A stretch of 64,000 nt of DNA, taken from Chitinophagaceae bacterium (GTDB lineage Bacteria; Bacteroidota; Bacteroidia; Chitinophagales; Chitinophagaceae). The position numbers were made by a program, and so were the translations under genes. Every line of letters starts with the position of its first letter. Positions within the stretch are counted from its first letter, which is position 1. The notes under the pieces were generated by a model. That model saw only the letters and a list, made by a program, of their open reading frames with translations. It was not told where the DNA came from and did not search any database. Shown one piece after another: positions 42,094-64,000 of the stretch. The stretch covers positions 9,102-73,101 of the forward strand of contig JBAZUJ010000014.1 of the NCBI GenBank assembly GCA_041661485.1, read 5' to 3'.

Positions 42094-42296
42094 ATTGCAG
42101 GTGAGTTAAAAAGTCATTTTTAAAACCTGGTTTGTGCTATATAAGCAAGTTGAGTAGACATCAAATAAATATTACATAAGCAAAAATTATTTACAAAGAT
42201 TTATTCTTGAAAACACAGTTTTCTAATTTTTCTGACAGACATTCACTGACCGTTTTAACAAAACAATAAGTTAAAGCAATAAATCAAATATTCCCT

Positions 42297-45215
42297 ATGT
42301 GCCGGATAGCAATTTTACTGCTATGTATTTTCTCAGCGAAACTCTCGCGGGGTCACGGTTTTATAGATTCTACAATTCTAACTTCCGATTTTCCTGTTTC
42401 GATAAAGGGGAATAAATTTTCTCAGCGTGTTTCCTATCAGATTAGTCAGGATACGACCATCAACATCCGTATCAGCAGTTTCTATTATAGAAGTATACAT
42501 GACAGTCTTGCGTTATATGATTTATTGTTTGAAGATGTAAAAGTGCATTTAGGTGCAGGTTTTATTGACCTGCCTTTTGAAAAAGCCGTGAGCAGGCACA
42601 AAATGCACGCTGATTTCTTTGAGGTCATTTCACACTTTAAGATGGTGCCAGCAGGGATGTACAAAACACAGGTTATTTTAATTTCTTCCAAAGAAAAGAA
42701 CAAAGTTTTATATCATCAGATAATAGATCAGTTTGCCGATACTGCTTTATCCCAATCTTCGGGCCTTCGGGACAAAATGAATGCCGCAGTTGCCCTGCCC
42801 AAAAAAGCAGTTTCCTCAAAAGTTTCTAGATCCGGCAAAAAGCAAACTGCGACTAATGATGCCCAGATAAAAGCAGCTGAAACTAAAATGAAGCGTCAGC
42901 TCCGTAATATCAAAGGCCTGGACCTGCGCCCGATTAAACAAAACGGAAAGACCTATAGCGAAGCGTATTATAAAGGTTTCTTACTTGGTCGTTACGAAAT
43001 GGCCTCAGTTGATGAACTTAATGAGCGTGCTGCAAACGAATCGAAGAAAATAAGCAGCAATGCATCTTCGTTAGTTAATAATGAATTGGACGGTTTCAAA
43101 AGTGTAGGCTCGCAACTAAAAGGTTTAAACTCCAAAACTGACAGGGAAGATAAACTGAAAGGAATACTTGAGCTGAATACTTATCGTGGCTCGGCACAGG
43201 ATCCCCAATCTGAAATAGAACAGAACTATACTGAATTCCTTGGTGGAGTAGACGTTGAAGTAAGGGGAATGCCTTTTTCGATAGAAGGTTTTTATACCAC
43301 ACAGGATGCCAACCGTAAAGCAAAGGCCAGCTACTTCCGCGTACACTATGATGTGGAGTCAGCCAAATCAAAATTACAAAGCACAATCAATGGTTATAAA
43401 TCCAAGCTGAACGAAACTGTTTCAAAAGGAAAGGGGCTGGAAAGTGTATATGGAACTTATGCCAAAAGCCTGGAATCCCAGAAAGAAAGTATGCTCAATA
43501 AAATGGCAAAGGAGTACGATGTGGATCCAAAAGTAATCAAAGAGAATAATGGTGACGCCGGTAAAATTGCTGCTTCCATTCCGGATGTTGAGGATACGGC
43601 TAAATTAACCGGGCTGGCCGAAAAGACTGCATCCAAATCATCAAAAGGACAAAGCACAACAGCTAAAAAAGACAAACTACTGAAGGATAAGAAGGATATT
43701 GAAGAACGCTACCAAAAAATAGTTGCACTGGAGCAAAAGGCAGAAAAGTATTATAAAATGCTGGATAATTACCGCACCCAGACGCAATTGGATTCCGCTG
43801 TAAACTATAAGAAAATGGCTGGCCTGGATGAAAACGGGGATGCCTCTTACAAGGATATGGCCAAAGCAGCTTCCGGTATTTTACCCGAAGGCAAAACAAA
43901 AAACTTTATAACCGGTCTGACCAGCTTCGATGCCGGCATTATCAATAAATATGAGTCTGACTACACCATGGCCGGGCAAACAATGAAAGGCCTGAGTTTT
44001 GGTTATGATCTGGGTATCTGTAAAACCGGTGTAACACTTGGCAGCACTGAGTACGTATCCCGTGAAGGGAACGTTGACCATTACAGCTCAATGTTGATCC
44101 GGGTGGATAACAAAGGTTCTAAAAACCACAAACTGGGTTTTCTGTATAATGTCAACACCCCTGCCAGGTCAATGGGGCAGGATGACAATTTTATAGGTCA
44201 GCAGGGTGTCCGGTACCCCAGCTTTAATACCCCGACACAAATCTTCTCCGTGATATATGATGGTAAAATCGGTAAATACCTTGTGGTGCATTCGGAAGTT
44301 GCCAGCTCCTATAAAAAGACCTACAGCAGCAATTTTGATATGGCCCATTCGGCCCTCAATAACAGCCTGGCTTTTATGATCCCGAAAACGTCTGTCAATA
44401 TCAACGCAGCCTGGGAACATCTTGGTCATTCATTTGAAAACAATGCTTTGCCCTATATCCGTTCCGGTACAGAACGCTACACCATCGGTACTTCAATGGA
44501 TCTGTTCAAATCATTCCTGAGCGTGAAAGTCGATTATAATTTCCTGCTCCAGGAGAATTTTGCAGTCAGAAGCTATAACAGGAAATGGGGTTTTGAAATG
44601 AAGACCCACTCCAAAAGATATCCATCGGTGAGTTTGTCCTACAAACCATTTTCAACCTTCCGATCACTTTCCGATACATTACAAATTGCCCAACGGCCTA
44701 TACAGGGCGAAGTGTGGACCGCAAGAGCAGGCTACCAGATTAAACGAAACAAAAAAGTGCATCGTTTTACAGTAATGTATAACCAAAACAGCAGTACAGC
44801 CGACACGATAAATTATACTTCCAGCACAGCGCAGCTGGGTTATATGTTTACCACACCGGCTATATCGGTAAATGCCAATGTGAGCAGGGTGCAGTTGCCC
44901 GAAAGCTTTGCAGATGGCTCAGGTGTGATCAGCAGTTATATTCTTGGTGCAGGAATTTCAAAGAACATAGGAAAGAGCCTGAGTGTTTCTTTAAGTCCCG
45001 ATGTCGCATTCTGTGATTGGGGAACCCAGCGCATATCCGCAACGGCAGGAATGGTTTGGAGAATGGAACGCAAACCGCTGACCTGGCGACTCGTTTTCCG
45101 CTATTCAAATTACAAATTAAGCCAGGCGGCGGTACCGATGGAACTCTACGCAGGGCAACTGGGGCTCAGCTGGCAATTTAAAACAGTGAGAAAACCAAAG
45201 AACATTTTGAATTAA
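42297..45215 (+). CDS. putative outer-membrane beta-barrel protein with N-terminal beta-sandwich-like and Lys-rich coiled-coil regions
   Basis: Hydrophobic N-terminus. About 350 aa of Lys/Glu/Ser-rich low-complexity or coiled-coil sequence. The C-terminal ~430 aa show alternating hydrophobic beta-strand periodicity ending ...YAGQLGLSWQF, followed by an 11-aa basic tail. Confidence 0.6.
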   Translation: MCRIAILLLCIFSAKLSRGHGFIDSTILTSDFPVSIKGNKFSQRVSYQISQDTTINIRISSFYYRSIHDSLALYDLLFEDVKVHLGAGFIDLPFEKAVSRHKMHADFFEVISHFKMVPAGMYKTQVILISSKEKNKVLYHQIIDQFADTALSQSSGLRDKMNAAVALPKKAVSSKVSRSGKKQTATNDAQIKAAETKMKRQLRNIKGLDLRPIKQNGKTYSEAYYKGFLLGRYEMASVDELNERAANESKKISSNASSLVNNELDGFKSVGSQLKGLNSKTDREDKLKGILELNTYRGSAQDPQSEIEQNYTEFLGGVDVEVRGMPFSIEGFYTTQDANRKAKASYFRVHYDVESAKSKLQSTINGYKSKLNETVSKGKGLESVYGTYAKSLESQKESMLNKMAKEYDVDPKVIKENNGDAGKIAASIPDVEDTAKLTGLAEKTASKSSKGQSTTAKKDKLLKDKKDIEERYQKIVALEQKAEKYYKMLDNYRTQTQLDSAVNYKKMAGLDENGDASYKDMAKAASGILPEGKTKNFITGLTSFDAGIINKYESDYTMAGQTMKGLSFGYDLGICKTGVTLGSTEYVSREGNVDHYSSMLIRVDNKGSKNHKLGFLYNVNTPARSMGQDDNFIGQQGVRYPSFNTPTQIFSVIYDGKIGKYLVVHSEVASSYKKTYSSNFDMAHSALNNSLAFMIPKTSVNINAAWEHLGHSFENNALPYIRSGTERYTIGTSMDLFKSFLSVKVDYNFLLQENFAVRSYNRKWGFEMKTHSKRYPSVSLSYKPFSTFRSLSDTLQIAQRPIQGEVWTARAGYQIKRNKKVHRFTVMYNQNSSTADTINYTSSTAQLGYMFTTPAISVNANVSRVQLPESFADGSGVISSYILGAGISKNIGKSLSVSLSPDVAFCDWGTQRISATAGMVWRMERKPLTWRLVFRYSNYKLSQAAVPMELYAGQLGLSWQFKTVRKPKNILN

Positions 45216-45255
45216 TAACAACAAGAAATAAATGCATGCTTAAAAAGTCAATACT

Positions 45256-46422
45256 ATGAATAATTCAGTTAAAAAACCGCAAGGAAGGAGCTTAAAATAC
45301 CTGGGCGTAATTGCCCTGCTTTTAGCCTCATTTTTTGCAATTCCTAAAAAGGCATCCGCGCAGATCCGTGATATGGATGTGGATATGGGCATGATTGATG
45401 GGGTGGAGATCAACAGCGAGAATATCTTCAATTACCGGATCAATAATATGACCAGCCAATCTCAGCAGGTGGATGTATTGGGACGGGTGCATTACCGAAG
45501 ATCAGGCTTATGGTTTACCTACCGGTACAGTATGACAGTTCAACCCGGCTACACGCAAATCAGCAGAAGCAGCATACCCACACCCGTATGGGCATTTTCA
45601 GAAACGGGTCTGAAAGATCTGTTCCTGACCTATAACAAACTCCCGCAGGGTACTTATGAATATTGTGTGAGCGTAGCTGTCAGAAAACCCGGAGCAGAAT
45701 CCGCGATCAATGACCCTTCTGCATGCGTGTATCAAACGGTGGAAGACTTGTTTCTCATCAACCTGGTAACACCTGAAAATGATGCAAAGATTTATGAATA
45801 CAACCCGATGCTGGGCTGGGTGGTGAATTATCCCTTTGCCAGTGAACTGACCTATAAGCTCCGTGTCGCTGAATTGAAGCAGGGACAGAACCCACAGAAT
45901 GCCATCACACGGAATAACCCGATGTACAAAGACGACCACCTGATGACAACCGGTACAGTTTATCCTGTAACTGCAAAACCACTGGTAAAATGGCAACCTT
46001 ATGTATGGACTGTTGATGCCTATTATAAAGGCATCCTGCTTGGAGGCGCCGAGGTCTGGAAGTTTACGATTATTGATGATAGTGAGTTGATAGCAGCACC
46101 AGGAGACCAATCTTACTATGAATTTGAAAAACACCAGGGAGATACCAGGCTGAATGCAGTTGGAGCAATTAAGTTGAAATATATCTGTGATTTGAATACC
46201 GACACTTTGCGATTTGTACTGAAAGACCAAAGTGGGGAAGAGCTATCTATTAACCAAAAACAGCAGATAGTTAAGCTGGGTGACAACCGAATGATATTTG
46301 AGATTTATGACAAAATCAATTTAAAACATAAAGGCAAATACACATTGTTCATTAAGGGAAGTAAACAGGAAACGTTTACTGTTCCATTCATTTATATCAA
46401 TCCCCTCTACAATAAAAAATAA
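45256..46422 (+). CDS. hypothetical secreted beta-rich protein
   Basis: Signal peptide ...LLASFFAIPKKASAQ. Shares an LPxGxY-terminated module with the N-terminus of the 972-aa protein. Its stop overlaps the next start (TAATG). Confidence 0.6.
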   Translation: MNNSVKKPQGRSLKYLGVIALLLASFFAIPKKASAQIRDMDVDMGMIDGVEINSENIFNYRINNMTSQSQQVDVLGRVHYRRSGLWFTYRYSMTVQPGYTQISRSSIPTPVWAFSETGLKDLFLTYNKLPQGTYEYCVSVAVRKPGAESAINDPSACVYQTVEDLFLINLVTPENDAKIYEYNPMLGWVVNYPFASELTYKLRVAELKQGQNPQNAITRNNPMYKDDHLMTTGTVYPVTAKPLVKWQPYVWTVDAYYKGILLGGAEVWKFTIIDDSELIAAPGDQSYYEFEKHQGDTRLNAVGAIKLKYICDLNTDTLRFVLKDQSGEELSINQKQQIVKLGDNRMIFEIYDKINLKHKGKYTLFIKGSKQETFTVPFIYINPLYNKK

Positions 46423-46913
46423 TGGAAAAGCAAAAGTCAGACAGAATTATCCTTTACAGTACATCATTGATTGTACTGGCTATGGCAGGAATAATGCTAA
46501 AAGGTAAAATTCAAAAATCACCCGTTGCCTATATCGATATCAGTAAAATGGTTGAAGGCTACAAGTTCAAAAAAGATATGGAGGCCGAGGGAACTAAAAA
46601 CTTATACCAGATAAAAAATACGGTTGACAGCTTAAAGCTAATACAGAAAATGGGCACTAGTCCATCAGTCGATTCACAGGTAATGTATGCAGAACGGGCA
46701 TTTGAGCAGTATTACACCTATTCAAACCAGGAAATGACCAAAAAAATATGGGAGCGCCTAAACCCTTTATTGGAAGAGTTCGGAAAGGAAGCTGGCTGTG
46801 AATTGATTGTAGGTGCTAATGGAGCGGGCAGTGTTTTATACGGGTCAAAAAAAATTGATGTTACCGAAGCGGCAATTGGCTTTATAAACAGAAAATATGA
46901 AAAAGGGAATTAG
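46422..46913 (+). CDS. OmpH/Skp-like periplasmic chaperone
   Basis: N-terminal anchor/signal, then PVAYIDISKMVEGYKFKKDMEAEG... and helical heptad-rich sequence as in OmpH/Skp. 163 aa. Confidence 0.6.
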   Translation: MEKQKSDRIILYSTSLIVLAMAGIMLKGKIQKSPVAYIDISKMVEGYKFKKDMEAEGTKNLYQIKNTVDSLKLIQKMGTSPSVDSQVMYAERAFEQYYTYSNQEMTKKIWERLNPLLEEFGKEAGCELIVGANGAGSVLYGSKKIDVTEAAIGFINRKYEKGN

Positions 46914-47499
46914 AGGACTGCTTATTCTTTTGACTTTACTATCCTGTAATAGCCCGGGTAATCTTTCTCCGGCTAACTATACTGCTTACCTGGAAAATCC
47001 TGAACATGATTTTTGCAGAAAAGTGGTGGTTGGTAACAATGAATATACGATTCAATTGGCTCCTGCTGAATACATGGTTTGTAAAGAAACGGAACAATCG
47101 GATTCTTCAAAACGGATAATGGCAGCACGCCTTAAAGAATTGGACGGCACTATATTTTTTTTAATAAAAATAGGCGCAACAAAGGAAAGCCGTATTCAGC
47201 AAGGAGGCAAACGAACGTCTGAAGAGCAAATTAATGCGAACGCAAAAGTTTCTTATTACGATCAGCTTGCTGTAAAAGATATTAGTCTGGAGAATGGAGA
47301 ACAAATGATCTATCCCTCTACTTATGTTTTTGAAAACAACTACGACCTGTCGCCCTTCAATACGATAGTTGTGGGCTTTGATGCGGTCACCACGGAGAAT
47401 TTGAAATTGACTTTTAATGACCGGTATACCGGTGTACCGGCTATACGTGCCTCTTTTTCCAAAGAGCAACTCACAAAACTACCTAAGCTTACTTTTTAA
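46897..47499 (+). CDS. hypothetical lipoprotein
   Basis: Lipobox LLTLLSC. Overlaps the upstream gene by 17 nt. Confidence 0.6.
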   Translation: MKKGIRGLLILLTLLSCNSPGNLSPANYTAYLENPEHDFCRKVVVGNNEYTIQLAPAEYMVCKETEQSDSSKRIMAARLKELDGTIFFLIKIGATKESRIQQGGKRTSEEQINANAKVSYYDQLAVKDISLENGEQMIYPSTYVFENNYDLSPFNTIVVGFDAVTTENLKLTFNDRYTGVPAIRASFSKEQLTKLPKLTF

Positions 47500-47528
47500 T
47501 TTATTGCGTATTTCATTAATCTAATTAT

Positions 47529-50500
47529 ATGAAAAAGAGGTTTTTCAAATTTATTGCAAAAGCGATGTTGGTTACACTGACTTATCAGCTTGTTTTCCCG
47601 GCCTGTGCCTATGCATTAACATCAGGCCCTTCACAACCGGAAGTTGAAAGTTTTGAACCTGTTGGGACAACAGAGATGGTGGATATGTTATCAGGTGACT
47701 TCAACTATAATATTCCTTTGATGGATGTGGAGGGATATCCAATCAATATATTTTACCATAGTGGAGTTGGTATTGAGCAGGAGGCAAGCTGGGTAGGACT
47801 TGGTTGGAATATTAATCCCGGCGAAATTAACAGGAGTGTACGGGGACTCCCGGATGATTTTAACGGGGAAATCATTGAAAAATTTACGAAACTTAAAGAG
47901 GAAAGAGACGTAAGGGTGGGGGTTGGAGCGAATATTGCAGCGGAGGCTTTCGGATTTGATCTCAGTAAAATGGGAATTGACATTTCTCTGGGTGCCGGGT
48001 TTTATGTTGCACACAATAATTATCGGGGACTGAGTGCCGGAGTTTCTCAAAGCATAGGAATTAAGGTGGGTATGGTTAGTACCGGAATTACCATGGGCGT
48101 TGGTTCACAATCTGGTGCAGATGTGGATTTGAATGTATCAGCTTCGATATCTCAGACATATGCGAGTGCAAATAACTCCGAGACAAGTTATGGTGTTTCT
48201 GCAGGTGTAGGTACAGGTTTTAATTCCAGAAGCGGGTTAAAGGACATTTCGTTGAGCATTACACCAACGCAATCGTATAAGTATTTAAAAACCAAAAAAA
48301 ATAGTGATGGGACATTTACTACAAAAGCCCATACTGCAAACGGTGGGAATGATGGAGGACTCAATGCCTCAATACCGGTTGGTTTGCAAAATTACGTACC
48401 GGTTATCACCAACCCAATGGTGCAGGATGCTTATGGTTTTCAACTGAAAGCTGGCCCTGAAGTATATGGAGGTATTGTCACACTTTACCTGGATGTGATG
48501 CTTTCTAATATAAAAATGGAAAACAATGGATCAAGGGACGGATATGGCTACCTGTATTCAGAGAATGCAAAGAAAGAAAGTATAATGGACTTTAGCCGGG
48601 ATAAAGACGGCGCGTATAATGAGACGATGAATAATCTTCCGCTAAGTACTAATACTTATGATATCTACTCAGTGAATGGACAGGGTACAGGCGGTATGTT
48701 CCGCCCTTTCAGAAACGATATCGGTACAATTCACGATCCTTATGTTGATCCGGGAAATGAAAGCGATAATTTCAGAGCATTGGTAGAAGTTGGGGCAACA
48801 AGTTTGTTTGAGGCAGGTGGCGATTTGACCACAGTAAGGACCAGGAATGAATGCGGCCCCTGGGGACGGATTGCATATGGAGGTGATAAACCCGGAACCC
48901 TATATGAGAAAGTTTTTTACAAACATGGGGGAGACCTTTCGTATAATCAACAACAGGAAACTCCACAATTGTTTAACCTGTCCACACAATATGTTGCCCC
49001 GGATTTGAATTCCCTTATCTCACACGGATTTGCAAATATTGGAAGTTTACCTGCAGAACATAACGGAACAAAAATATTCTGGAACAACAGTGTAATTGAC
49101 CGGTCTTCAAGGACAACTCACATAGGTTATCAGACTTCGGAGCAAATTGATAAAATACCCGAATTACCGCAATCAAAGAAAATAGTAAGTTATGAACCGG
49201 GTTCAGCCAATCATTTTTATGACCCTAAAGTAAAGGAATATAACAGGTCTTATAAATCTAAAGCAACGCTTTCAGGTGCCAATCACAACGCGGAACCTCA
49301 TCATATCAGTGTTTTTACTCAGACACAGGCAGATGGCAGGCGGTATGTTTATGGCATACCTGCTATGAATAATGCTACAAGAGAAGTCTCCTTTGCCGTA
49401 GACGAAAGTAAAGCAAATCTTGCGAATGGATATGTGGGTTATACCCCGGGCACTGACGATGGCCCCGGAAATGAAAAAGGTAGAGATAAGTATTATTCTT
49501 CGACCGGAACACCTGCCTATGCGCACAGTTATTTATTGACCAATGTTCTGTCAAATGATTATGTTGATATACTTGGGGACGGGGTAAGCGATGACGACCT
49601 TGGTTCGTTTACCAAAATTAATTACACGCTTTCTGACAGTGATTACAGGTGGAGAACACCTTATCACAATGATAGTGCCCAGTTCAATCCGGGCTTCAGG
49701 AGCGATAGTAAAGACGGCAAAGGTAATTATCTGGTGGGCTCCAGGCAGCAATGGTATGTACGTTCGGTAGAGACTAAAAATTACATAGCAGAGTTCTATA
49801 CTTCAAAACGAAAAGATGCGAAAGGAATACAGGCAGCAGTTTTACAGAGCGATTCAAAAATAAAAACGAACAAACTGAATTTGAAATCTGCTAAATCAGA
49901 TACCTCTTATTCCTATCAGCTGGATTCAATAAGGCTGTACAATAAACATGACCGGTATATTAATAAAGACAATGCCGTTCCGGTTAAAACGGTCGTGTTG
50001 CAATATGACTATAGTTTATGCAAAAACACACCTAACAGCACAGCTTCTACAAAAGGAAAACTAACCTTAAAAAAGATTTTTATAAAGTACGGCAATTCCC
50101 AAAAAAACCTCTTAAGCCCCTATACTTTTGAATATAACACATCGAATCCTGATTATAATTTTTCGGCAAAAGACCGCTGGGGAAATTACAAACTGGCATT
50201 ACCGGGTAGCCGTAACAATGAGTTTCCTTACACTGCGCAACCGAATAATTCTACAGAGGCAATAGATTTGAATGACCAGTTGTCTGCCTGGAATCTGAAC
50301 GATATTAAACTGCCTTCGGGAGGGAAAATTCATATCGATTATGAAAGCGATGATTATGCTTTCGTACAGGATAAGAGAGCGATGCAAATGTTGAAAATTG
50401 CCGGAGTGGGGAGCAGTAAGGAGTTCGCTCCAAAGAACTTTTTGTACACCGGACAAGACAATATTAATGACTATGTATACTTCAAAAGGCGGAAGACAAA

Positions 50501-53500
50501 AGAACGGGCAGGAGTTTCGATGAAAGACAATTACCTGGAAAATCAGGAAGTGATTTATTACAGTTTCAATTTAGATATTAATGGGAAAGGAAGCTATGAA
50601 AATATAAAAGGCTATGCCAAGTTTGATGAAGTGGGTATTTGTACCGGGAATGATGATTATGGGTATGTAAGGCTATTAAGAGATGAGGCCGGAAATGCAA
50701 AATTTCATCCCGCTACCGTTTATGGCATAAACACAGCCAGGTATTATATTCCTCACATTTTTTATGATGGCTATGAAGAAAGCAGTGATTTGAAAAAGGT
50801 TGCCAAAGGATTGTTTGCTTCAGGAAAAGAAATGTTTGGCACAATCATTATGAGAAACCCGTTCAAACGCTGGGTTGGAGAAAAAAGAGGAAGGATTTTC
50901 AATATTGATCAATCCTTCATCAGGTTACATGCGCCGGATTTAGCTAAAAAAGGCGGCGGTATCAGGGTACGTCAGCTAACCCTTTCAGATAATTGGTCGG
51001 CATTGTCCGGTAATGAATCAGCTACTTACGGAAAGAAATATGACTACACCACTTCCATAGGTAATTATGGTGTAGTCAGTAGTGGTGTTGCTGTTTATGA
51101 ACCTATGATCGGTAACGATGAAAATCCGTTTCGTAAACCTGTTTTTTACGCAATGGATAAAGGCCGGTTATTACCAGCTGTAAATTTTTTCCAGGAAGAA
51201 CCCTTTGGTGAAAGCTTTTTCCCGAGTCCGGGTGTAGGCTATAGTAGTGTTAAAGTAACAAGCATTCATCAGGAAGAAGGTCGTTCAGCACAATCTATGG
51301 ATGAACATTTATTTTATACTGCAAAAGATTTTCCTGTTAAAATCGACTACACCCAAATCGGTGGAGATAAAAATTCATCTCAGCGTAAATTATTCAAGTA
51401 CACCAAGAAGGCCGAAGTTCTACAGGGTTATTCTTTGATTTTTAATGATATGCACGGCAAGCCTAAAGCCGTAAATAATTATACGATTCATCAGGATGGT
51501 TCTTCTGTTACGATGAAGAAGATTACAGGAGTTGCCTATAAATACTTTACTGATGCAAATGAAAAGAACCTTGATAATAAAGTAACAGCATTAGTCCGTA
51601 ACAGAGGAACAACCGATGGTTATGAAATAAGACAAGTGACCCTGGGTCAGGATATTGATGTCTCAATTGATAGCAGGCACAGGAAAACGCAAACCACTAC
51701 GACGCAAACAAACCTGAATCTTAATGTTTTTTTAATCGGGATATTCCCAATATTTCCGTTTACTGTTTTTCATACAGAAAAAGAAAAGAACCTTGAATTT
51801 GGCTCATTGGTCACAACCAAAATTGTTCAGCAATATGGCATTTTGAAGTCAATTGAGCAATTTGATCACGACGCGATTACCAAAACAGAAAATCTTGTTT
51901 TTGATGCAGAAACCGGGGGTGTTCTGTTAAGTAAGACCAATAATCAGTACAACGATAATATTTACACACGGAAAGATCCTGCCTATCTGGCTTACAAGGG
52001 GATGGGGCCGGCTTACACCAATATGGACTACGAGGAAACAGCTACGCTTGTGGTCGATAATGCCAGAAATGGATTTTTGCAAACTTCACACATGGAGAGA
52101 TTTGGACCCGGAGATGAAATTCTGGTTGATATTTCTGAACGTCTGGGCATGAGACTTGTAACATCTTATCTCAAAATCTGGATATTGAACGAAACCGGAG
52201 GCCGTGTCTGCAGGAAAGATACTGCAATCAGTAATGTTGCCTTTTGGAAAGCTTCTGACAGCTTATGTAATTGCAGCGAAGGATATTATTTTGAAGCCAT
52301 CTCCGGTTCAGTTTCCGTTTCAATTTACAAGAGTGCCACACCAAGCGTATTGTTTGCATCCGGCACATTAAGCAGTTCTGCTGTTATGCCTGCGCCAGCA
52401 TGTACGGAGTCGACAAAATTCTTAGGATTCAATCTCCCTCCTGGCAATTACAATTATACTTTGAGTGGTTCCGGTATTTATAATACAACTGGGTATTCGA
52501 GTCCCAAATCCGGGACATTTACGGTACCATCAACAAATGGTATCAGTATCGGATTGCAAAATTGCAGACAGGATTACAATGGCCCGCAACTTTATACATA
52601 TTGGACGACCACAGCTTGTACGTCACCGTTCACTCCTTGCATTCGCACAGGCATTACGGATTCTACAGGTCCATGTTCTTATGCAGTGGCGCCAAGATTT
52701 AAGGACGAATTTGATGCAGCAGATCTGACAAAAAACATCAGCAAATGGCCGACAACGGCAAAGACATTTAGCAATGTGCCAATAAAAGTATTGCGATCTG
52801 GAAGAAGGAATAACCTGGACAAAATGGTTCAGCAAATTGTATTTGCGGATCCGGCTAACAGGACATCTTATCCAACAGATACAAGAGGATACTTTGAAAA
52901 GTATGATAACGTTATTTCTGCCGGTGCAAATACTTTTACCGATACGGCTCAGAACTATGCAGGATTTGAAGACTCTGTTGTTATCCCTTATTTGAAAAAA
53001 TACAGAAAACTCAATGCATTTGTATTAGGGCTCAATGGCAATTACAGACCATCGGCTTCTTTTACACCCATTACCAAAAGAACTTACGCAAAAGAGCATA
53101 CCCGGTTTAATGGAACTTATACCATTGATACTCCGTTCTGGGTTTACCTGGCTCCTAAATGCCCTTACAAATGTGCCAGCGGACAAACAATAATGTCGCC
53201 AAATGAATTTACACAGATTCCATTCTGGAAAAGGGCGTCAACCATTACACGTTATGACCCTAATGGGAATGCCCTGGAAGAAAGGGATGTTTTGGGTAAT
53301 TACTCCTCCGCACAATATGGGTATAACAGGTTATTGCCTGTTGGGGTTGCTGCAAATGTCCAGGCCCAGCATTTTATGTTTGAAGGCTTTGAAGATTACA
53401 ATATGCTACTGCCGCAAAATACAGCGGAATTGTATAAAAAACGGCAGCTGCACAGCCTGCTGGGTTGGCCATTTGCCGAACCGGTTTCCAGTGTAACGGG

Positions 53501-54158
53501 CGCTTACCCTTCCGAACAATCATCAGGAGACCCTGCCGTATTTACAAGAAGCGGACAACGTTTTTACCTGATGCAAAAAGCTCCTTCGGGTTTGGGGATG
53601 GAACTAAGCAATGATGCAAGCCATACCGGTAATTTCAGCCTGAAATTCACCTCAACGAAATCTATTGATTTTGCCATTGCAGATAATAATCCAACAGCAA
53701 TAAGCCCTTTCACAATGGATCATGCGCAGAACTATTTAGTCAACTTCTGGGCTAAGTCGACAAGCGGTGCTGCTATAACTGCCGCATCATTTACAGCAAG
53801 TATTGCACCGTCCTCTACCAGTGGTACTGTTAGCGTAAAATCAGGCAATATCGATGGTTGGTATCTGGTGCAGATTAATCTTGACCTGAAACTGATTACC
53901 TCTGTGCTTCCGCTTACTGCAACAATAGACTTTCCTGCAGATATCTATGTGGATGACCTGCGCTTTATTCCTTCTCAATCGAACATGAAGAGTTTTGTGT
54001 ACGATCCTATCACTTTCAAGCTGATGGCTCAGTTAGATGAAAATCACTTTGCCACATTCTTTGAGTATGACCAGGAGGGATTGCTGATCAGGACCAAAAA
54101 AGAAACCAGTCGTGGTATAATGACTATCAGTGAAAGCAGAAGATCAAACGCAAAATAA
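47529..54158 (+). CDS. giant secreted protein with SpvB/TcB-like N-terminal region and C-terminal jelly-roll + YD-like terminus
   Basis: Signal peptide. SGPSQPEVESFEPVG..MVDMLSGDFNYNIPLMDVEGYPINIFYHSGVGIEQEASWVGLGWNINPGEINRSVRGLPDDF parallels the SpvB/TcaC N-terminal signature (G..F.....tG.f.y.IPl...g..P.L.Y.S......G.GW.l....I.R...G.P.Y). The C-terminus is ...VDDLRFIPSQSNMKSFVYDPITFKLMAQLDENHFATFFEYDQEGLLIR... Confidence 0.75.
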   Translation: MKKRFFKFIAKAMLVTLTYQLVFPACAYALTSGPSQPEVESFEPVGTTEMVDMLSGDFNYNIPLMDVEGYPINIFYHSGVGIEQEASWVGLGWNINPGEINRSVRGLPDDFNGEIIEKFTKLKEERDVRVGVGANIAAEAFGFDLSKMGIDISLGAGFYVAHNNYRGLSAGVSQSIGIKVGMVSTGITMGVGSQSGADVDLNVSASISQTYASANNSETSYGVSAGVGTGFNSRSGLKDISLSITPTQSYKYLKTKKNSDGTFTTKAHTANGGNDGGLNASIPVGLQNYVPVITNPMVQDAYGFQLKAGPEVYGGIVTLYLDVMLSNIKMENNGSRDGYGYLYSENAKKESIMDFSRDKDGAYNETMNNLPLSTNTYDIYSVNGQGTGGMFRPFRNDIGTIHDPYVDPGNESDNFRALVEVGATSLFEAGGDLTTVRTRNECGPWGRIAYGGDKPGTLYEKVFYKHGGDLSYNQQQETPQLFNLSTQYVAPDLNSLISHGFANIGSLPAEHNGTKIFWNNSVIDRSSRTTHIGYQTSEQIDKIPELPQSKKIVSYEPGSANHFYDPKVKEYNRSYKSKATLSGANHNAEPHHISVFTQTQADGRRYVYGIPAMNNATREVSFAVDESKANLANGYVGYTPGTDDGPGNEKGRDKYYSSTGTPAYAHSYLLTNVLSNDYVDILGDGVSDDDLGSFTKINYTLSDSDYRWRTPYHNDSAQFNPGFRSDSKDGKGNYLVGSRQQWYVRSVETKNYIAEFYTSKRKDAKGIQAAVLQSDSKIKTNKLNLKSAKSDTSYSYQLDSIRLYNKHDRYINKDNAVPVKTVVLQYDYSLCKNTPNSTASTKGKLTLKKIFIKYGNSQKNLLSPYTFEYNTSNPDYNFSAKDRWGNYKLALPGSRNNEFPYTAQPNNSTEAIDLNDQLSAWNLNDIKLPSGGKIHIDYESDDYAFVQDKRAMQMLKIAGVGSSKEFAPKNFLYTGQDNINDYVYFKRRKTKERAGVSMKDNYLENQEVIYYSFNLDINGKGSYENIKGYAKFDEVGICTGNDDYGYVRLLRDEAGNAKFHPATVYGINTARYYIPHIFYDGYEESSDLKKVAKGLFASGKEMFGTIIMRNPFKRWVGEKRGRIFNIDQSFIRLHAPDLAKKGGGIRVRQLTLSDNWSALSGNESATYGKKYDYTTSIGNYGVVSSGVAVYEPMIGNDENPFRKPVFYAMDKGRLLPAVNFFQEEPFGESFFPSPGVGYSSVKVTSIHQEEGRSAQSMDEHLFYTAKDFPVKIDYTQIGGDKNSSQRKLFKYTKKAEVLQGYSLIFNDMHGKPKAVNNYTIHQDGSSVTMKKITGVAYKYFTDANEKNLDNKVTALVRNRGTTDGYEIRQVTLGQDIDVSIDSRHRKTQTTTTQTNLNLNVFLIGIFPIFPFTVFHTEKEKNLEFGSLVTTKIVQQYGILKSIEQFDHDAITKTENLVFDAETGGVLLSKTNNQYNDNIYTRKDPAYLAYKGMGPAYTNMDYEETATLVVDNARNGFLQTSHMERFGPGDEILVDISERLGMRLVTSYLKIWILNETGGRVCRKDTAISNVAFWKASDSLCNCSEGYYFEAISGSVSVSIYKSATPSVLFASGTLSSSAVMPAPACTESTKFLGFNLPPGNYNYTLSGSGIYNTTGYSSPKSGTFTVPSTNGISIGLQNCRQDYNGPQLYTYWTTTACTSPFTPCIRTGITDSTGPCSYAVAPRFKDEFDAADLTKNISKWPTTAKTFSNVPIKVLRSGRRNNLDKMVQQIVFADPANRTSYPTDTRGYFEKYDNVISAGANTFTDTAQNYAGFEDSVVIPYLKKYRKLNAFVLGLNGNYRPSASFTPITKRTYAKEHTRFNGTYTIDTPFWVYLAPKCPYKCASGQTIMSPNEFTQIPFWKRASTITRYDPNGNALEERDVLGNYSSAQYGYNRLLPVGVAANVQAQHFMFEGFEDYNMLLPQNTAELYKKRQLHSLLGWPFAEPVSSVTGAYPSEQSSGDPAVFTRSGQRFYLMQKAPSGLGMELSNDASHTGNFSLKFTSTKSIDFAIADNNPTAISPFTMDHAQNYLVNFWAKSTSGAAITAASFTASIAPSSTSGTVSVKSGNIDGWYLVQINLDLKLITSVLPLTATIDFPADIYVDDLRFIPSQSNMKSFVYDPITFKLMAQLDENHFATFFEYDQEGLLIRTKKETSRGIMTISESRRSNAK

Positions 54159-54168
54159 TCGAAGAGAC

Positions 54169-54873
54169 ATGAAAAAATCATTTCTGACAATTTTAATTTG
54201 TTGTGCATCCTGTTCAGGATTTGCCCAGGTTTTCTGGCCTTACACACAATTATTTAATCAATTGAAAACAAGCACACAATCACAAATGACCTACAATTAT
54301 AAGGTTATACTCATTGATGTGAAGACGGGAGTGGCGGTGGATAGTATGTTTGGGTTACTTGCCTGTAAGGACAAGAAATTCCTCGATAGTAACTCACTCT
54401 ATTTTATGGCAAAAACTGAAAAAGAGTATTGCAAGTTTGATCATACAGACCAGACTGCCATGGTATTTGACCTTAAAGATTTATCCAAAAAAATGAAGTT
54501 GCCTCTCATTGATGAGCCCAATAAAATGATTTCCATTTCAGAGGATTTTATTTCAGATGAAGGTGGAAAGATTGAATATGATTTCAGAAATAATTTCTAT
54601 TACCGCCTGAAGTTTACGCCGAAAAATCAGGCCCTTTATTATGGACATGTTGATTTCAATAAACAGAATCACAGTTTTATAGGGGCTTATCTCGAAATGG
54701 ATGATGTGAATCCTGTTGAAAACACGCACTTCCGAAAGGCAGTTTATATCTACAATGTCAGCTTCAAAGTCAATGATGCCGTATTCAATATGGCAAGGTA
54801 TTATACCATTAGAAAAGGGCAGCTTTCAATGGGAAAGCAATACAGTACTTATAAAATCACTAAAATACTATAA
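54169..54873 (+). CDS. hypothetical secreted protein between the two giant genes
   Basis: ATG 54169 gives the signal peptide MKKSFLTILICCASCSGFAQ and lies 10 nt after the upstream stop codon. The track start 54130 would overlap the 2209-aa CDS. Confidence 0.6.
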   Translation: MKKSFLTILICCASCSGFAQVFWPYTQLFNQLKTSTQSQMTYNYKVILIDVKTGVAVDSMFGLLACKDKKFLDSNSLYFMAKTEKEYCKFDHTDQTAMVFDLKDLSKKMKLPLIDEPNKMISISEDFISDEGGKIEYDFRNNFYYRLKFTPKNQALYYGHVDFNKQNHSFIGAYLEMDDVNPVENTHFRKAVYIYNVSFKVNDAVFNMARYYTIRKGQLSMGKQYSTYKITKIL

Positions 54874-54883
54874 AACTATTTTT

Positions 54884-57800
54884 ATGAACAGGAGATTATG
54901 GCTTATAATCGGATTGGTATTATACAATTCAATTTGTTTTGCGCAGGATTTCAAATTTTTCCCGGATAAGTTTACACGAAGGGTTTCCAGTGGTCAAATT
55001 GCTGCGGGTGGTACATTTCCATATCTGATGATTCAAACTGAGAATGACATGTGGGGTGATATGACTTCCGACCCTTTTTTCGATTCTAAGCATCAGTTTA
55101 AAAATGTCGAAGATATTGTTCGGGTGGGGATCCGGCACGATACGGGTGTTATCATTCCTGCGTACAAGTATCAGGTTAGTTTTGAAATTACCTGTTATGA
55201 TTATCATTCGCCATGGAGTCCTGTAATTAAAAATACCACCCTTGAGTTCTCTTATAACCCGGATTCTCTAACACAATATAAGGATCTGGTTTTATACAGG
55301 TTTACAGGATACCATGCTATTCAGGTTACAATTACAGGAATAGATGATGTGACTTCAGGACCTCCTTCATCGTTGGTGGCTGCTGCTATTGCCAAAAATT
55401 TCTATGTAGAATCAGAAGTTTCAGTCCATCGCTATGATCTTACACCACAATTTGTAGTAATGGGAAATAATCCTTCCCCTGATGGAAAGGAGTTGAAGGT
55501 CTTTTGGGAAATGTTTGACGTCGGATCTCCGGTCACCTGTCCTTTAACAACTCCGGGTGGCGGGAATGATTTTAAGCCTGCTATTTATGAATTGGAGTGG
55601 TGCTATATTGATGATTACCAATATGACTTTTCCACTAATGATAGTTCTTATGCTTTTTCAACTCCCGGAAATATTAATTATGATTTCAGGAAAAACAGTA
55701 CCAGGGTACAGATTAGTAAAGGCCGCTCATTCAGTATCCCATTAATTTACGAACATGGAGCAATAGTTTATCGTGTCAGAGCAATCAGGCCCGATGCTAC
55801 CCGATATAAAGATATCGAAATCGGGGGATGGACCCTTAGTGATTATGGCACGGTAGATGCAAGTGCATCCTGCTTCTCCAAAGAAGGGTTTTTAATTACT
55901 GATGCCCATTTGCATGATAGTATGAATTGGCAGTACACTATCAATTTTGCCGAAGAAGGGAAGTACAAGCACGTCATCAATTATTTTGACGGCTCTTTAA
56001 AAGACCGGCAGACCCAGACAAAAATTAATACCGATAATGGCTATGTTATAGCTGTTGATAAAGTATATGATTATGAAGGCCGGCCTTCACTTGTCTCTTT
56101 ACCAACCCCTGTTTATGGCCAGGATAACCTTCAATACCGTTCGGATATTTTATTGAATACTGCTACCGGTAATCCATACAAAGCAGCTGATTTTGATTTT
56201 ATAGGTTGCAGCCGGCCCGATTCCATACCTTATTTGTCCACATCGGCTCAGGCTAATATCTATTATTCTCCGCTCAACAGCGACCAGGCAGACATGCAAA
56301 AATTTGTTCCGGATGCTGAAGGTTACCCAATGGTTCAAACAATCTACTCGCCTGACAATACCAATAAAGTATTATGGCAGGGTGGAGCCGGACAGGAACA
56401 GCAAATCTGGAAAGGACATGCTACGCAGTATGAATATTCAAGGCCCAATCAAAAGGAAATTGACCGGTACCTGGGTACAGAAGTAGGTATAGCACAATTC
56501 TATCCGAAACAAGTTGTGACCGATCCGAACGGACAATCCAGTTATTCTATTTTAGACCCTTCAGGTAAAGTGGTTATTTCCGGGCTTCAGGGGCCAAGTC
56601 CCGACTCCTCACAAATTCCTGTTGATACCCTGGCTAATTTCGTAAGAGGCAAATCAGAGTGTGACGACTTGCTTGAAGGTTATACCCAGGAGAATTCAGG
56701 GAACAGTAAAAAAGCGCAACTACCTGCTTATAATGATGAATACGGAGACGGCACATTTAAATATAGCGTGCGCACGTTTCCTTTTGATACAAGATGTGCC
56801 GGTCAATACCTCTGGGTTCCGGCTGCTTATACAATGAAGGTGACTAACGATTGCGGTGTTATCAAAAATAATACTACAGGTATTGCGGGCGAACATAAAG
56901 TAACTCCTTCTGATGGTTCTGCTTATGAAGTTTCAAGCCAGGTCGTTACAGGTATGTCTAAAGGGAATTACCTGGTCAATAAGGAACTTTCCTTTTCGGA
57001 AAAGGAAGTGTATAATATGGTGGACAGTTTTGTTTATGCGAACGAACCTGCTTGCTATAATGACGTACATTATTTTATTAAAAAGACCATTGACTCCACT
57101 AAATTTCCCTGTGAAGGCTTTGTAGATACCAACACCAGCCATTGTGATCAGATGAAGAAGCTGATGATGGCAGAAATGTATCCGGGCGCTAAGTATGGTA
57201 AATATTTTAAGGACAGTTCAGGTGCGTTTGCAGGAGGTTACGATAATTCAATATTTACAACAAAAGTAAAACCTTATCTTACAACTGCTCCCCCAAAGAG
57301 TGTTGTTAAGTTCCTTGCCCGTACGGGTTGTGACCCTACTTTACAGGACACGCTGGCTCATGGCTCTGTTGATACTGCCTGGAAGTTTTCAACCAATTTG
57401 ATTGGTCCCTATGTTTGTTCAGTTTTTGATCCTATCCGGACCCGGGATTCTCTTACGCTATATGGAGGTAATATCACAGCAGATAATACACTTCCTGCCC
57501 ACTATAATCTCACTGCCGGGTATACCATACGCCATGGGATGTATTCGGGAGCCGCTTCATGGAAAACGAGTGTTTATATTGACAGCACAGTACCGCTTGA
57601 TATGGTATACGCTTATTTTATGTACGATGACGAGGCCGAAAATCTCATCGTTAATGGCGTGGTAAATGAACTTGATCATGGGATTTATTATTATTCTCAT
57701 GGCTACAATTACAATGTCAAAGGTTTTCATCATGGATATAATGATATTACCGTTACAGGTTACGATTGGCTGGCTATGCCAACAGGTGTGACCCCGGAAG

Positions 57801-60800: not shown

Positions 60801-63800
60801 ACTGCGAGCACGATCTCCTTGCCAGGGCTATCCGCAATGGGCAGGCTAGTTACCGCAGGCATTTCGATTCTACGGTGAAGCAGATCAGTGGTGATATGAT
60901 GACCCACCTGATGACCACCACTAAGGACTCGCTCGTGTTTTGTGGGCAAAGGCAGCAATACCAGCAGACTTTGTATTATTACGATCTTGCCGGAAACCTC
61001 ACTTCCACGGTGCCACCCGCTGGCATCGAAACCGTGCCTGACAATCGCTTAAATGAAGTCAAAATCAACCGCAGCATTTCAGCGCCCGAAACAGCAATGA
61101 CCACGCATAAAAAAACATCTGTCTACCGCTACAATTCGCTCAATCAGCTGGAGTATCAGCACACTCCGGATGGTGGCACTACGGTGTTCTTTTATGATGC
61201 AGCCGGCCGGCAGATATTCTCGCAAAGCAGCCGGCAAAGGCCTTTTGGTACTTATTCTTACAGCATTTACGATGCACAGGGACGCCCCGAGGAGTCCGGC
61301 GAATTTCAGGCAGGATGTACCTATACACCCGACCCCCTGGTAGACTTCGACACCACCGCATGCACCCTGGGTTCTGTTACCGCCGCACATCCGCCTTTCA
61401 TCCGGTATTCGTTCAATGACATGGTGTATCATTACGATACGCTGAAAAGTATGATACGGGCCAAAGACCGCACAGAAGTGGTACGCACCTCTTATGACGA
61501 AGCACCTATCGACCTCAGCACTATAATCAGCTATCTGCTCAAGGCACAGGAGAATCTCCGCAACAGGGTAGCGGCAATTCAGTACTATGATAACATAGAA
61601 TCATATCTCACTAATCCCTCGCTGCCCGGCCCTACCTTTGCCACTTATTACAGTTACGATATTGGTGGCAATGTCAAAAACATCGTCTACGATTATCCCT
61701 ACCTGGGTCGTTTTCAGCAGCAATTCAAATCCATTGATTATGATTTTGATCTTATCAGTGGAAAAGTAAACATGTTGAGTTACAACCCCGGTTATCCCGA
61801 CCAGTTTTATCAGCAATATGAATATGATGCAGATAACAGGATTACGAAGGTGTTGACAAGTAATGACGGCCTTATCTGGAACAATGATGCGCAGTATGAA
61901 TATTACAAGCATGGGCCGCTGGCGCGCCTGAAACTGGGCGAGCATCAGGTACAGAGCCTGGAGTATGCCTATACCATACAGGGCTGGCTCAAAGCCATCA
62001 ACGGTGACCTGTTGAATCCTGATTTGGAAATGGGTAGCAATGGTCGTAGCGGAGATATGACCTTTTCAAGAGATGTTATAGCACATGCCCTGAGGTATTT
62101 TGAAAAAGACTACAAATCTATCAGCAGTACAGCGGTGACGAATCTTACTGCCAGTACAGCAAAGAACCTGTATAATGGCAACATCACGCAGCAGACCACA
62201 GGGATTGGCGGATTGGGCAATATGCAGCGCGTATATCAGTACGACCAGTTGCAAAGGCTCAAAATGACAGGTAACGTCACAGTGGATGATTATACACCTG
62301 CCCTGGCCTCCACACCTGCCGATTTGTTCAAAAGTACTTATGCCTACGACATGGATGGTAATATCTCCGCCCTTCAGCGCTGGGATGGCACATCGGGCAG
62401 CCCTGTGCAGATCGACAATTTCAGCTATACCTACGATCCTGCCACGCCAAACAACAGGCTGACGCAGGTACGCGACCTGGCGGCTCCTACAGCAGGCACC
62501 GACCTGCAGCCGGGCCAGGTGAGCGACAACTATGTGTACGACCCATCGGGCAACCTGGTGGAAGACAAACAGGCGCAGAGCATCATTGCCTGGGACAGAT
62601 TTGGCAAAGTGAAAAGCATACACCAGAATGCGACCAGCCAGGCAATCAAATTTAAGTACGATGGCAAGGGCAACCGCATATGGAAAGATGTGATAAACCC
62701 TGACCTGGCTATAATAATGGACCCGCCGGAAGTGCACCAGGCGGAATATTATGTACGGGATGCCGGTGGCAACATTTTGGCAACCTATCATACCTGGTTT
62801 AAAGACCAGCCATCCGGACCACTTTCTTACGCGCTGCCCGGCGACACCTTTAGCCTGGCCGAACACCATATCTACGGTAGCAGCCGACTGGGTGTACACC
62901 GCTACGACAGTACCAGCCTTTCTAACAGGATAATGCCCCTGCCGGGCGAAGCTCCGCAAACCGTGCTGAACACACAGGTGCAATGGTACAGCTATGCTTA
63001 TACCGACATGATAGACATTGGCTATACCGAGCCTTATGGCACAGCCGGCAACACATTTTTGGGAGATTTAACAACATCCCGTACCTTAGGGCGTAGATAT
63101 TATGAGTTGACCGACCATTTAGGGAATGTGCTGGCTACCGTGCTGGACAGGAAGACCGGAGCCGGAACGCTATCAGGAAGCAGTGGAACATTGTATGACC
63201 ACTGGTCTGCTGACTTAGCGAGTACGGCTGATTATTACCCGGGTGGTATGATGATGCCGGGAAGGAATACAGAGCATAGCTGGAGCAGGATGGGGTATAA
63301 TGGACAGGCCAAAGATGATGAGGTGTACGGAAAAGGTAATTTGAATACTGCTTTGTTCTGGGAAATGGATACGAGGATATTAAGGAGGTGGAATTTTGAT
63401 CCAGTACTGAAGCCATGGGAAAGTAGTTATGCAGTTTTCGCAAATAGTCCTATAGTAATGGTTGATCCGCTTGGAAATACAAGTTTTTACAACACAAGCG
63501 GGGTATTTATCGGGTCGGACTGGATTAATAATAATATAAAGTTGATGGCAGTAAATGAAGCAACTGTAAAAAATATAATTGCAAATACACAGTTGTCTAT
63601 ATTGGGTTTGCCAGTTGTAAGATATAATGAGCAAAATAAATCCCAATTTGACTTATTTCCCGTTGTTTCAGAGTCTGAGATAGAAGGGATGGAAAAGGTG
63701 TATGATGTCTCATTTTCTAAATCAACAGAAAATGGGATGGTTGGAGGAGCAAATAATAGTGGCGGGAGAAGCGCAAAAGTTAATGTAATGGGATCTCTAA

Positions 63801-64000: not shown

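Follow-up and report, generated by a model that had tools for sequence, protein, structure and literature searches.

How does a giant toxin that carries a Sec signal leave a cell with two membranes? The question is raised by a run of seven genes in a Chitinophagaceae bacterium of the phylum Bacteroidota (NCBI GenBank assembly GCA_041661485.1, contig JBAZUJ010000014.1, positions 9,102 to 73,101 of the forward strand), in a stretch of 64,000 nucleotides (nt) that is called the window throughout. We know of no established route by which Sec-dependent RHS toxins cross the outer membrane in Gram-negative bacteria, and Bacteroidota genomes are full of 'DUF6443/RHS' giants to which no route has been assigned. 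The seven genes, named A to G here, form a cassette that is conserved across hundreds of Bacteroidota species. [quoted passage not shown] The genes are arranged as follows.

42297-45215, plus strand: gene A, 972 amino acids (aa), predicted outer-membrane barrel protein
45256-46422, plus strand: gene B, 388 aa, probable LamG/lectin-like secreted protein
46422-46913, plus strand: gene C, 163 aa, probable OmpH/Skp-family chaperone
46897-47499, plus strand: gene D, 200 aa, predicted lipoprotein
47529-54158, plus strand: gene E, 2209 aa, giant putative partner of the toxin
54169-54873, plus strand: gene F, 234 aa counted from ATG, probable LolA3-family protein
54884 to beyond 64000, plus strand: gene G, 3104 aa when complete with the last 66 aa outside the window, probable RHS polymorphic toxin

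The original prediction, made from the letters of the window, had placed seven same-strand open reading frames (ORFs) at exactly these coordinates, and the spacers are all as it described them: the gaps measure 40 nt before B, 29 nt before E and 10 nt before both F and G, while B and C overlap in TAATG and C and D by 17 nt. The export signals that it assigned to all seven products were likewise found, with signal-peptide-like N-termini throughout and a lipobox, LLS|C, in D. Tight packing alone is, however, no proof of an operon, because scans for consensus promoters (53 against 51.7 in shuffled sequence) and terminators (21 against 16.2) stayed at chance level. It is the same gene order, kept across 57-64 independent loci, that makes A to G a unit.

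These loci were obtained with an E-family profile run against one genome per species of Bacteroidota (GTDB species representatives), which recovered at least 565 loci. Eighty of them, each with 10-kb flanks, were analysed by searching their ORFs with hidden Markov models (HMMs) iterated from the window proteins; the presence of A to D was counted over the 57 loci with at least 5.5 kb upstream, and that of F and G over the 64 with at least 2.5 kb downstream. B was found in 57/57 loci, D in 53/57, A in 44/57 and C in 40/57, while F was present in 62 of the 64 and G in all 64, and E immediately precedes F-G in every one of these 64. The gene order, (A)-B-(C)-D-E-F-G, is invariant and the strand is shared, except that A is inverted in some loci. 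The near-universal core of the cassette is B, D, E, F and G, and the earlier view of A to G as one conserved unit, with order and strand shared, is upheld by the survey: barrel, OmpH, E and RHS toxin co-occur, and the loci do not lie inside T6SS loci. The expected lack of T6SS, TpsB/POTRA and TcA genes was also seen, none being found in the cluster by Pfam or NCBIfam (Hcp, VgrG, PAAR and TssBC included) and none recurring within ±10 kb of the 80 loci.

Protein identities between loci range over 32-65%, several genomes hold two or three copies of the cassette, and all credible hosts are Bacteroidota. Plasmid-borne E-like genes were detected by tblastn in Aureispira, Aureibacter, Pontibacter, Bernardetia, Fulvitalea, Persicobacter and Hymenobacter, the Aureispira plasmid carrying B-C-D-E-F-G and a small ORF downstream. 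Some contigs of metagenome-assembled genomes that bear the cassette are labelled Rhizobium, Burkholderiales, Hydrocarboniphaga, Akkermansia or Phycisphaerales (L042, L059, L063, L075; P0253); these are most likely mis-binned Bacteroidota contigs and not a real spread beyond the phylum.

By its domain content, G appears to be a DUF6443-RHS polymorphic toxin with a swappable tip of the last ~240 residues. Its parts are given below.

Nt 55946-56293, plus strand: DUF6443-like region at residues ~355-470, following the signal peptide, where DUF6443 matches fall in homologues (Pfam)
Nt 60968-63478, plus strand: YD/RHS repeats and putative RHS core, residues 2029-2865
Nt 63479 onward, plus strand: variable C-terminal toxin, from residue ~2866

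Pfam RHS_repeat matches residues 2083-2110 (E-value 2.7e-6; 28 bits against a cut-off of 22), and multiple YD motifs occur in residues 2029-2600. An RHS-core-type sequence, GYNGQAKDDEVYGKGN...DPV...SPIVMVDPLGN, can be read directly, its SPIVMVDPLGN, a motif of the cleavage type, being residues 2855-2865; no RHS-core model of NCBIfam matched the window protein at an E-value of 0.1 or below, and homologues are named 'RHS repeat-associated core domain-containing'. Over the C-terminal ~200 residues (bins of 100 residues from 2901), identity to 15 homologues falls to ~0.1, a collapse that is consistent with a toxin boundary at DPLGN (residue 2861). The homologues end in at least nine different Pfam families, among them lysozyme, Hydrolase_2, HNH, Tox-REase-5, Ntox24, Ntox43 and PT-HINT. 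Moreover, ORFs of 132-165 aa begin 0-20 nt after G in homologous loci, and these are putatively immunity-like. G and its downstream ORF would thereby form a classic polymorphic toxin/immunity arrangement, and the repertoire of tips points to bacterial targets. An RHS toxin with a Sec signal had been foreseen, and the RHS repeats, the signal peptide and the hypervariable C-terminus agree with it; G also runs past the window as foreseen, but with a complete length of 3104 aa most of its toxin domain already lies inside. In Chitinophagaceae bacterium MMS25-I14 (CP197396, L084; 20202-30040), ~11 more same-strand ORFs without Pfam matches lie beyond the G homologue and its putative immunity gene, and may be orphan toxin-tip and immunity cassettes.

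What could carry such a protein to the surface? One candidate component is A, whose AlphaFold2 (AF2) model, built on a 25-sequence alignment, has a pLDDT of 79 and comprises the following parts.

Gene A, plus strand: N-terminal β-sandwich after the signal peptide, residues 27-147 (AF2)
Gene A, plus strand: mixed domain, residues 208-351 (AF2)
Gene A, plus strand: long coiled coil, residues 353-512 (AF2)
Nt 43917-45191, plus strand: β-barrel of ~22 strands, residues 541-965 (AF2)

Foldseek gave 358 matches for A in the PDB at an E-value of 1e-3 or below (best 7.9e-9), of which the best 50 are all membrane barrels: TonB-dependent transporters, MtrB, the FimD usher, porins and AlgE. No Pfam or NCBIfam family matched, POTRA, Omp85 and PorP/SprF included. 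On this model A is predicted to be an outer-membrane β-barrel protein with a signal peptide and a C-terminal aromatic β-signal, in agreement with the barrel suspected earlier in its C-terminal half; it does not end at ...LGLSWQF as was then stated, since that is where the last strand ends and 11 further residues (...WQFKTVRKPKNILN) follow.

The giant partner protein E is divided as follows.

Nt 47613-47858, plus strand: extremely conserved N-terminal motif after the signal peptide, residues 29-110
Nt 47862-48548, plus strand: Gly/Ser-rich amphipathic β-meander, residues 112-340
After the β-meander, plus strand: large β-rich body with no known fold, followed by a CBM-like region
Nt 53937-54155, plus strand: C-terminal YD-type hairpin, residues 2137-2209

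E has more than 3641 homologues of ~2000-2300 aa, nearly all without a Pfam domain, and those with a name are 'hypothetical' or called after one accessory domain; CBM_4_9 was found in 4 of 20. With a profile of the N-terminal part, matches came from 8064 clusters (50% identity), of which 2578 reach an E-value of 1e-30 or below and the best 150 are all E-like. Residues 1-1200 (54% of the protein) were modelled with AF2 on a 40-sequence alignment at a pLDDT of 66. In this model, residues 112-340 form ~11 long antiparallel strands and residues 530-1200 a confident β-rich body, and residues 29-110 remain at a pLDDT of ~25 despite having the highest conservation. Foldseek returned no significant match for it in the PDB (0 at an E-value of 1e-3 or below) or in BFVD, and among the matches listed for this medium-confidence model there is no Tc, RHS or teneurin structure.

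The β-meander is the part of E that bears most on the outer membrane. Its highest-probability Foldseek matches are LpxR, PgaA, designed transmembrane barrels and the β-domains of BrkA, Hbp and AIDA. Its strands average 14 aa, close to the 12.8 aa of the A barrel, against 10.8-11.8 aa in soluble strands of E or A; small residues make up 64% of their polar face (49% in the A barrel, 22-27% in soluble strands) and charged residues 21% (21% in the A barrel, 31% in soluble strands), and the opposite face is strongly hydrophobic. By these statistics the strands match those of the A barrel and differ from soluble ones, which is suggestive of a membrane-barrel-like segment within the modelled protein.

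E had originally been described as SpvB/TcB-like at its N-terminus, and of this a short motif, IPL...P.NI.YHS...GLGWN...I.R..RG.PDD, is what stands. The motif recurs at 30-41% identity (tblastn) within the N-terminal portions of proteins annotated as RHS-repeat proteins from Chondrinema, Hymenobacter and Streptomyces. The Pfam SpvB model is absent from both motif-bearing RHS-repeat proteins that were scanned (Streptomyces and Chondrinema), and has no match in any of 20 E-family members at an E-value of 1 or below. Pfam RHS_repeat, FG-GAP and TcdB/TcdB_mid, like SpvB, have no match in E (E-value of 0.1 or below) or in 19 homologues, and the E family profile retrieved nothing from PDB sequences. 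Salmonella is not among the named genera in a tblastn search of the motif against plasmids (E-value of 10 or below), a collection expected to hold spvB plasmids. SpvB/TcB family identity was accordingly rejected for E, after negative results by Pfam, NCBIfam, PDB sequence searches, and AF2 with Foldseek against the PDB and BFVD. Pfam IAT_beta and LysM have no match in E, nor has IAT_beta in the 19 homologues. Between E and G the one likeness is that of the closing hairpin of E, FATFxEYDQEGxLxRT, to three different YD repeats (E-values 0.1-0.26); as paralogues the two proteins were rejected, BLASTP and hhalign being otherwise negative.

Two plasmid loci place E in a wider setting.

Chondrinema litorale plasmid NZ_CP111045 (L086), 7255-23423: PKD protein, 700-aa protein, 1275-aa E-like protein, DUF6443-RHS toxin (2388 aa) and a small ORF
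Hymenobacter sp. DG01 plasmid NZ_CP040937 (L088), 12315-26871: 2009-aa LamG-like B, OmpH, D and a 1725-aa E-like 'RHS repeat protein'

The 1275-aa Chondrinema relative has the same N-terminal motif (E-value 9e-12) and the same C-terminal hairpin (E-value 7e-6) as E, in a reduced locus that has no OmpH and no LolA3 and whose 700-aa protein weakly matches DUF2490. Because this compact relative directly precedes a DUF6443-RHS toxin, E would appear to belong to a wider class of obligatory partners of such toxins, in which the barrel-like segment is probably an insertion specific to the large E family. In Hymenobacter sp. DG01, a 'T9SS type A sorting domain-containing protein' stands in place of LolA3 and the RHS toxin, and this variant is a possible link with type IX secretion (the T9SS). 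In a further subgroup (L041, L043, L045-L048, L056, L066, L075, L080 and L082), the tblastn match of E spans up to ~2980 codons, and between its main ORF-level match and F lie 2.5-5 kb of additional sequence, perhaps inserted into the C-terminal third of E, which is variable.

Among the smaller components, B is a secreted all-β protein without Pfam or PDB sequence match, whose homologues are named 'LamG domain-containing protein' or jelly-roll in RefSeq. Long variants reach ~900-2000 aa (900-1680 aa in nine loci), with SprB repeats, Ig_7, Big_2 or CUB inserted between conserved B ends. Such gain of domains is typical of a surface or target-binding module, and B is probably a LamG/lectin-like module that acquires adhesin domains; the prediction of a 388-aa secreted β-rich protein was sound as far as it went but missed this character. 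The long forms were also considered as A-B fusions, and this was rejected as the B profile covers both ends with the adhesin insertions between them and the A HMM has no match. Residues 80-133 of A (42534-42695) align with residues 92-145 of B (45529-45690) at an hhalign probability of 48% and an E-value of 2e-4, and an LP.G.Y motif is common to the two, which suggests that one module is shared by the β-sandwich at the N-terminus of A and B's first domain. In three loci with a very long B and no A (L046, 1832-5131; L049; L063), four extra co-oriented genes lie upstream, the first of which encodes 438 aa with weak similarity to PilN (E-value 3e-4).

C passes the Pfam OmpH cut-off (37 bits against 32.4, E-value 4.7e-9) and has an N-terminal hydrophobic segment, so that its earlier assignment as an OmpH/Skp-like protein is strengthened and it is very probably a periplasmic chaperone of this family. 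The assignment of D as a lipoprotein is equally borne out: the Cys of its lipobox (Cys17) is near-invariant in a 16-member alignment. The D family has no Pfam or PDB match and is uncharacterised; as a LolB-like partner of F it was rejected, the likeness in hhalign against the F family being confined to the signal peptide.

F had been recognised as a secreted protein, but its LolA3-family identity was missed, and it measures 234 aa from ATG, not 235. The window protein matches NCBIfam NF053579 weakly and end to end (residues 1-230 against 1-231 of 232; 21 bits, E-value 1.9e-4), and 12 of 16 same-position proteins of other loci, tied to it by the iterated HMM, match LolA3_fam with E-values down to 2.6e-44. 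F is thus best taken, by homology, as a periplasmic LolA3-family (LolA-fold) protein directly upstream of G. LolA3 is a recently named LolA paralogue, Fjoh_0605 of Flavobacterium johnsoniae and PGN0947 of Porphyromonas gingivalis, which does not bind LolB and is credited with 'a separate function' (PMC11885536, PMC13103446); the available text of these two studies makes no mention of the cassette as its neighbourhood.

The cassette of the window sits in a setting that the original prediction made part of its description, as an 'integrase-linked' operon. The neighbouring features are the following.

39360-39447, plus strand: tRNA-Ser(GGA) found by ARAGORN, a probable island integration site, outside the conserved module
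39697-40923, plus strand: tyrosine integrase (Pfam Phage_integrase, E-value 1.5e-16; SAM_5; Arm-DNA-bind_5), context and not a conserved partner

The integrase starts 250 nt past the tRNA gene, the signature of an integrated island, and since no second copy of the 3' end of the tRNA occurs within the 64-kb window, the right end of the island would lie past 64000. The integrase is followed by a 112-aa ORF (41087-41425) with weak similarity to Epsilon_antitox (E-value 0.018), and then by a non-coding spacer of ~870 nt (41426-42296) with a terminator-like hairpin of 12-bp stem at 41995-42022 and a repeated GCCTGCGCTA motif directly upstream of gene A. The link to the integrase is incidental: a homologue lies upstream in just two other loci, and Taibaiella soli has the same seven genes beside a resistance-nodulation-division (RND) pump and without any integrase. 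No other gene family recurs in the ±10-kb flanks of the 80 loci, the maximum being six loci that are all close relatives. It is therefore the cassette and not the island that is the unit, and an integrase or mobile element as its defining feature is ruled out by the Taibaiella soli locus and the flank survey.

Given these components, a mechanism can be proposed in which all seven proteins would cross the inner membrane through Sec, D by the lipoprotein route. The Skp-like C and the LolA-like F would then keep outer-membrane-destined or aggregation-prone parts soluble in the periplasm, their likely clients being the A barrel, the amphipathic β-meander of E, the lipoprotein D and the giant unfolded chains. 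E, as the obligatory partner of G, would be anchored in the outer membrane, or pass it, through its N-terminal barrel-like segment, leaving its body exposed so that its carbohydrate-binding-type region, together with the LamG-like B, could bind the target; D, and A where present, would complete an outer-membrane platform. G would be exported and held by this platform, with an RHS cage enclosing the toxin, and autoproteolysis at DPLGN would free the toxin into a neighbouring cell while the immunity protein protects kin. The crossing of the outer membrane by G could make use of the cassette's own barrels or of the host T9SS.

Several observations weigh against an apparatus of this kind. The route through the outer membrane is drawn from sequence and models, and the transmembrane-barrel matches of E residues 112-340 are weak (E-values 0.03-0.1, TM-scores mostly <0.3) for a segment modelled with medium confidence (pLDDT ~50-75); the compact Chondrinema relative of E does without the β-meander. 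A is absent from 13/57 loci (~23%) and from the Aureispira plasmid copy, and C from 17/57, so that, barring copies elsewhere, neither can serve every locus as translocon or chaperone; the idea of A as the dedicated exporter is weakened by these absences, and A is unlikely to be a universal one. The window F falls below the curated cut-off of NF053579 (83 bits), and deletion of LolA3 in F. johnsoniae has no gliding or T9SS phenotype (PMC11885536). The toxin domain of the window (~240 residues) has no match to a known toxin family by Pfam or PDB sequence, and the window's own immunity gene lies outside it.

It is the route of export on which the explanations divide. The cassette could be an autonomous export and delivery pathway, independent of T6SS, T9SS and two-partner secretion (TPS), in which a machine of E, D and B (with A) and private Skp-like and LolA3 chaperones would move the ~350-kDa RHS toxin to the surface and into rivals; we put this forward tentatively. 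Dependence on T9SS is its main rival. In that case B, E and G would be exported by the host T9SS through a non-canonical signal or partner, and A, C, D and F would serve this cargo in particular, as accessories, adaptors or anchors. The confinement of hosts to Bacteroidota, the phylum with T9SS, favours such dependence, as do the long B proteins with SprB repeats and 'CHU_C-associated' Ig_7, typical of T9SS cargo, the Hymenobacter plasmid with a T9SS type A sorting-domain protein after its E-like gene where F-G would stand, and the dispensability of A in many loci. PorP/SprF-like barrels are encoded beside SprB-type giant cargo; yet A has no PorP/SprF-type match. Kharade and McBride, in 2015, reportedly placed Fjoh_0601, Fjoh_0602, Fjoh_0604 and Fjoh_0606 in the T9SS-dependent secretome without recognisable C-terminal domains (CTDs), and these are presumably neighbours of lolA3 (Fjoh_0605). 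On the other hand, no type A or type B sorting domain was found in A to G by NCBIfam (E-value of 0.1 or below), which is expected to include models of both, or by Pfam, so that the lack of one on E predicted earlier is confirmed and extends to the other putative cargo, B and G; the C-terminus of G is the variable toxin, exactly where a CTD would sit; and dedicated Skp-like and LolA-like chaperones are no known feature of T9SS cargo loci. Taken together, export of B, E and G as T9SS cargo seems somewhat doubtful to us.

Two further explanations would dispense with an envelope apparatus. E and G could form one closed RHS-type shell in the manner of TcB-TcC, a soluble particle perhaps aimed at predatory eukaryotes, and the remaining genes would help in its assembly. 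This would suit the N-terminal motif that E shares, at 30-41% identity, with annotated RHS-repeat proteins, the terminal YD-type hairpin that matches three G repeats, and the adjacency of E-like and DUF6443-RHS genes even in the reduced Chondrinema locus. It fits poorly with the lack of Pfam SpvB, FG-GAP, TcdB_mid and RHS_repeat in E and 19 homologues, with an E profile that has no PDB sequence match, with Foldseek results free of Tc, RHS and teneurin structures, and with E and G profiles that are unlike beyond one hairpin; no TcA-like gene occurs in any flank of the 80 loci, and the peptidoglycan hydrolase and nuclease toxins with adjacent immunity-like ORFs point to bacterial targets. We consider such a cocoon improbable. 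That unrelated secreted and envelope genes came together by chance on an integrated island is hardly credible: the window does have a tRNA-Ser and an integrase just ahead of the genes, and neither promoter nor terminator scans are informative, but order and strand are kept over dozens of genera, whether the cassette is on a chromosome or a plasmid and whether or not an integrase accompanies it, and protein identities of 32-65% exclude a single recently spread element. The reading that we lean towards is hence that of an envelope or surface apparatus, whichever way G crosses the outer membrane.

Either outcome on T9SS would bear on interbacterial competition in Bacteroidota-rich communities. 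If the pathway is autonomous, it would be a new secretion and delivery pathway, and the orphan LolA3 family would gain a function; if it depends on T9SS, the cassette would reveal T9SS cargo of a new class, which lacks CTDs and has chaperones of its own. In both cases it provides a testable gene set in hundreds of soil, water and host-associated species of Bacteroidota, frequently with several copies and with plasmids and islands among the carriers, together with a concrete hypothesis for LolA3, whose function two recent studies leave unexplained, and with very large protein families (E, A, B and D) that have essentially no Pfam coverage.

How, finally, does the cassette compare with known systems? 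The original prediction held the architecture to be undescribed, and no description of the cluster was found in the literature that can be searched without subscription, to which the statements on published work that follow also refer; the term 'DUF6443' occurs in none of its papers. Zhang et al. (2012; PMC3482391) describe RHS toxins with signal peptides as well as 'TcdB/TcaC' trafficking in Bacteroidetes, RHS toxins being assigned there to 'T2SS' (type II secretion) or 'TcdB/TcaC'; the available text makes no mention of the A-G gene set. The TANFOR toxins (Jana et al., 2020) belong to a separate class.

The cassette as a whole fits none of the systems tested, namely T6SS, TPS and contact-dependent inhibition (CDI), Tc, T9SS cargo and inverse autotransporters. 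From T6SS Rhs effectors it differs in the Sec-type signal peptide of G and in a cluster without PAAR, VgrG, Hcp or TssBC. As in CDI (CdiB-CdiA-CdiI), one cluster encodes an outer-membrane barrel, a giant Sec-dependent polymorphic toxin and a putative immunity protein, and it probably serves contact-dependent antagonism between bacteria; however, A lacks a POTRA/Omp85 signature and has ~22 strands and not 16, G lacks TPS or FHA domains (Pfam POTRA, ShlB and Haemagg_act have no match in A, E or G), and B, C, D, E and F are extra components. The Tc TcB-TcC pair of Photorhabdus and Yersinia is likewise two adjacent large genes, the second ending in an RHS core and a variable toxin, and E begins with a short motif reminiscent of the SpvB/TcB start and ends in a YD hairpin. 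In contrast to TcB, E shows neither an SpvB domain nor a β-propeller or RHS repeats in HMM searches or in the fold modelled for residues 1-1200, and in contrast to Tc loci the cassette has no TcA, bears Sec signals on all products, includes outer-membrane, Skp-like and LolA-like parts, and carries toxins that look antibacterial.

With inverse autotransporters (type Ve; intimin and invasin), E would share a predicted signal peptide, a barrel-like segment and a huge adhesin or carbohydrate-binding body, but it has no IAT_beta or LysM, its barrel is suggestive, and its partner is a separate toxin. The T9SS pair SprB/SprF resembles the cassette in its restriction to Bacteroidota, giant β-rich surface proteins, an adjoining outer-membrane barrel and the SprB and Ig_7 domains of some B proteins; the cassette differs in having no type A or type B sorting domain and in an A without PorP/SprF signature. 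F is like LolA3 in that its family matches LolA3_fam and has a periplasmic LolA fold with a signal peptidase I (SPI) signal; LolA3 is published as an orphan without phenotype or LolB partner, whereas relatives of F stand between E and G in 62/64 loci, which suggests a dedicated role. The closest likeness in G itself is to polymorphic RHS toxins such as the Sec-dependent WapA of Bacillus subtilis, with which it shares RHS repeats, a putative RHS-core/DPxG-type motif, a hypervariable C-terminus, immunity-like ORFs in homologous loci and a Sec signal in place of a PAAR/VgrG adaptor. Unlike these, G has ~2000 uncharacterised N-terminal residues, including the DUF6443-like region, and is always paired with the giant E, a LolA3-family protein and further envelope genes, an accessory set for which no counterpart among RHS toxins has been described. 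It is this conserved accessory or export module that constitutes the new part of the cassette, G itself belonging to the known class of polymorphic RHS toxins.

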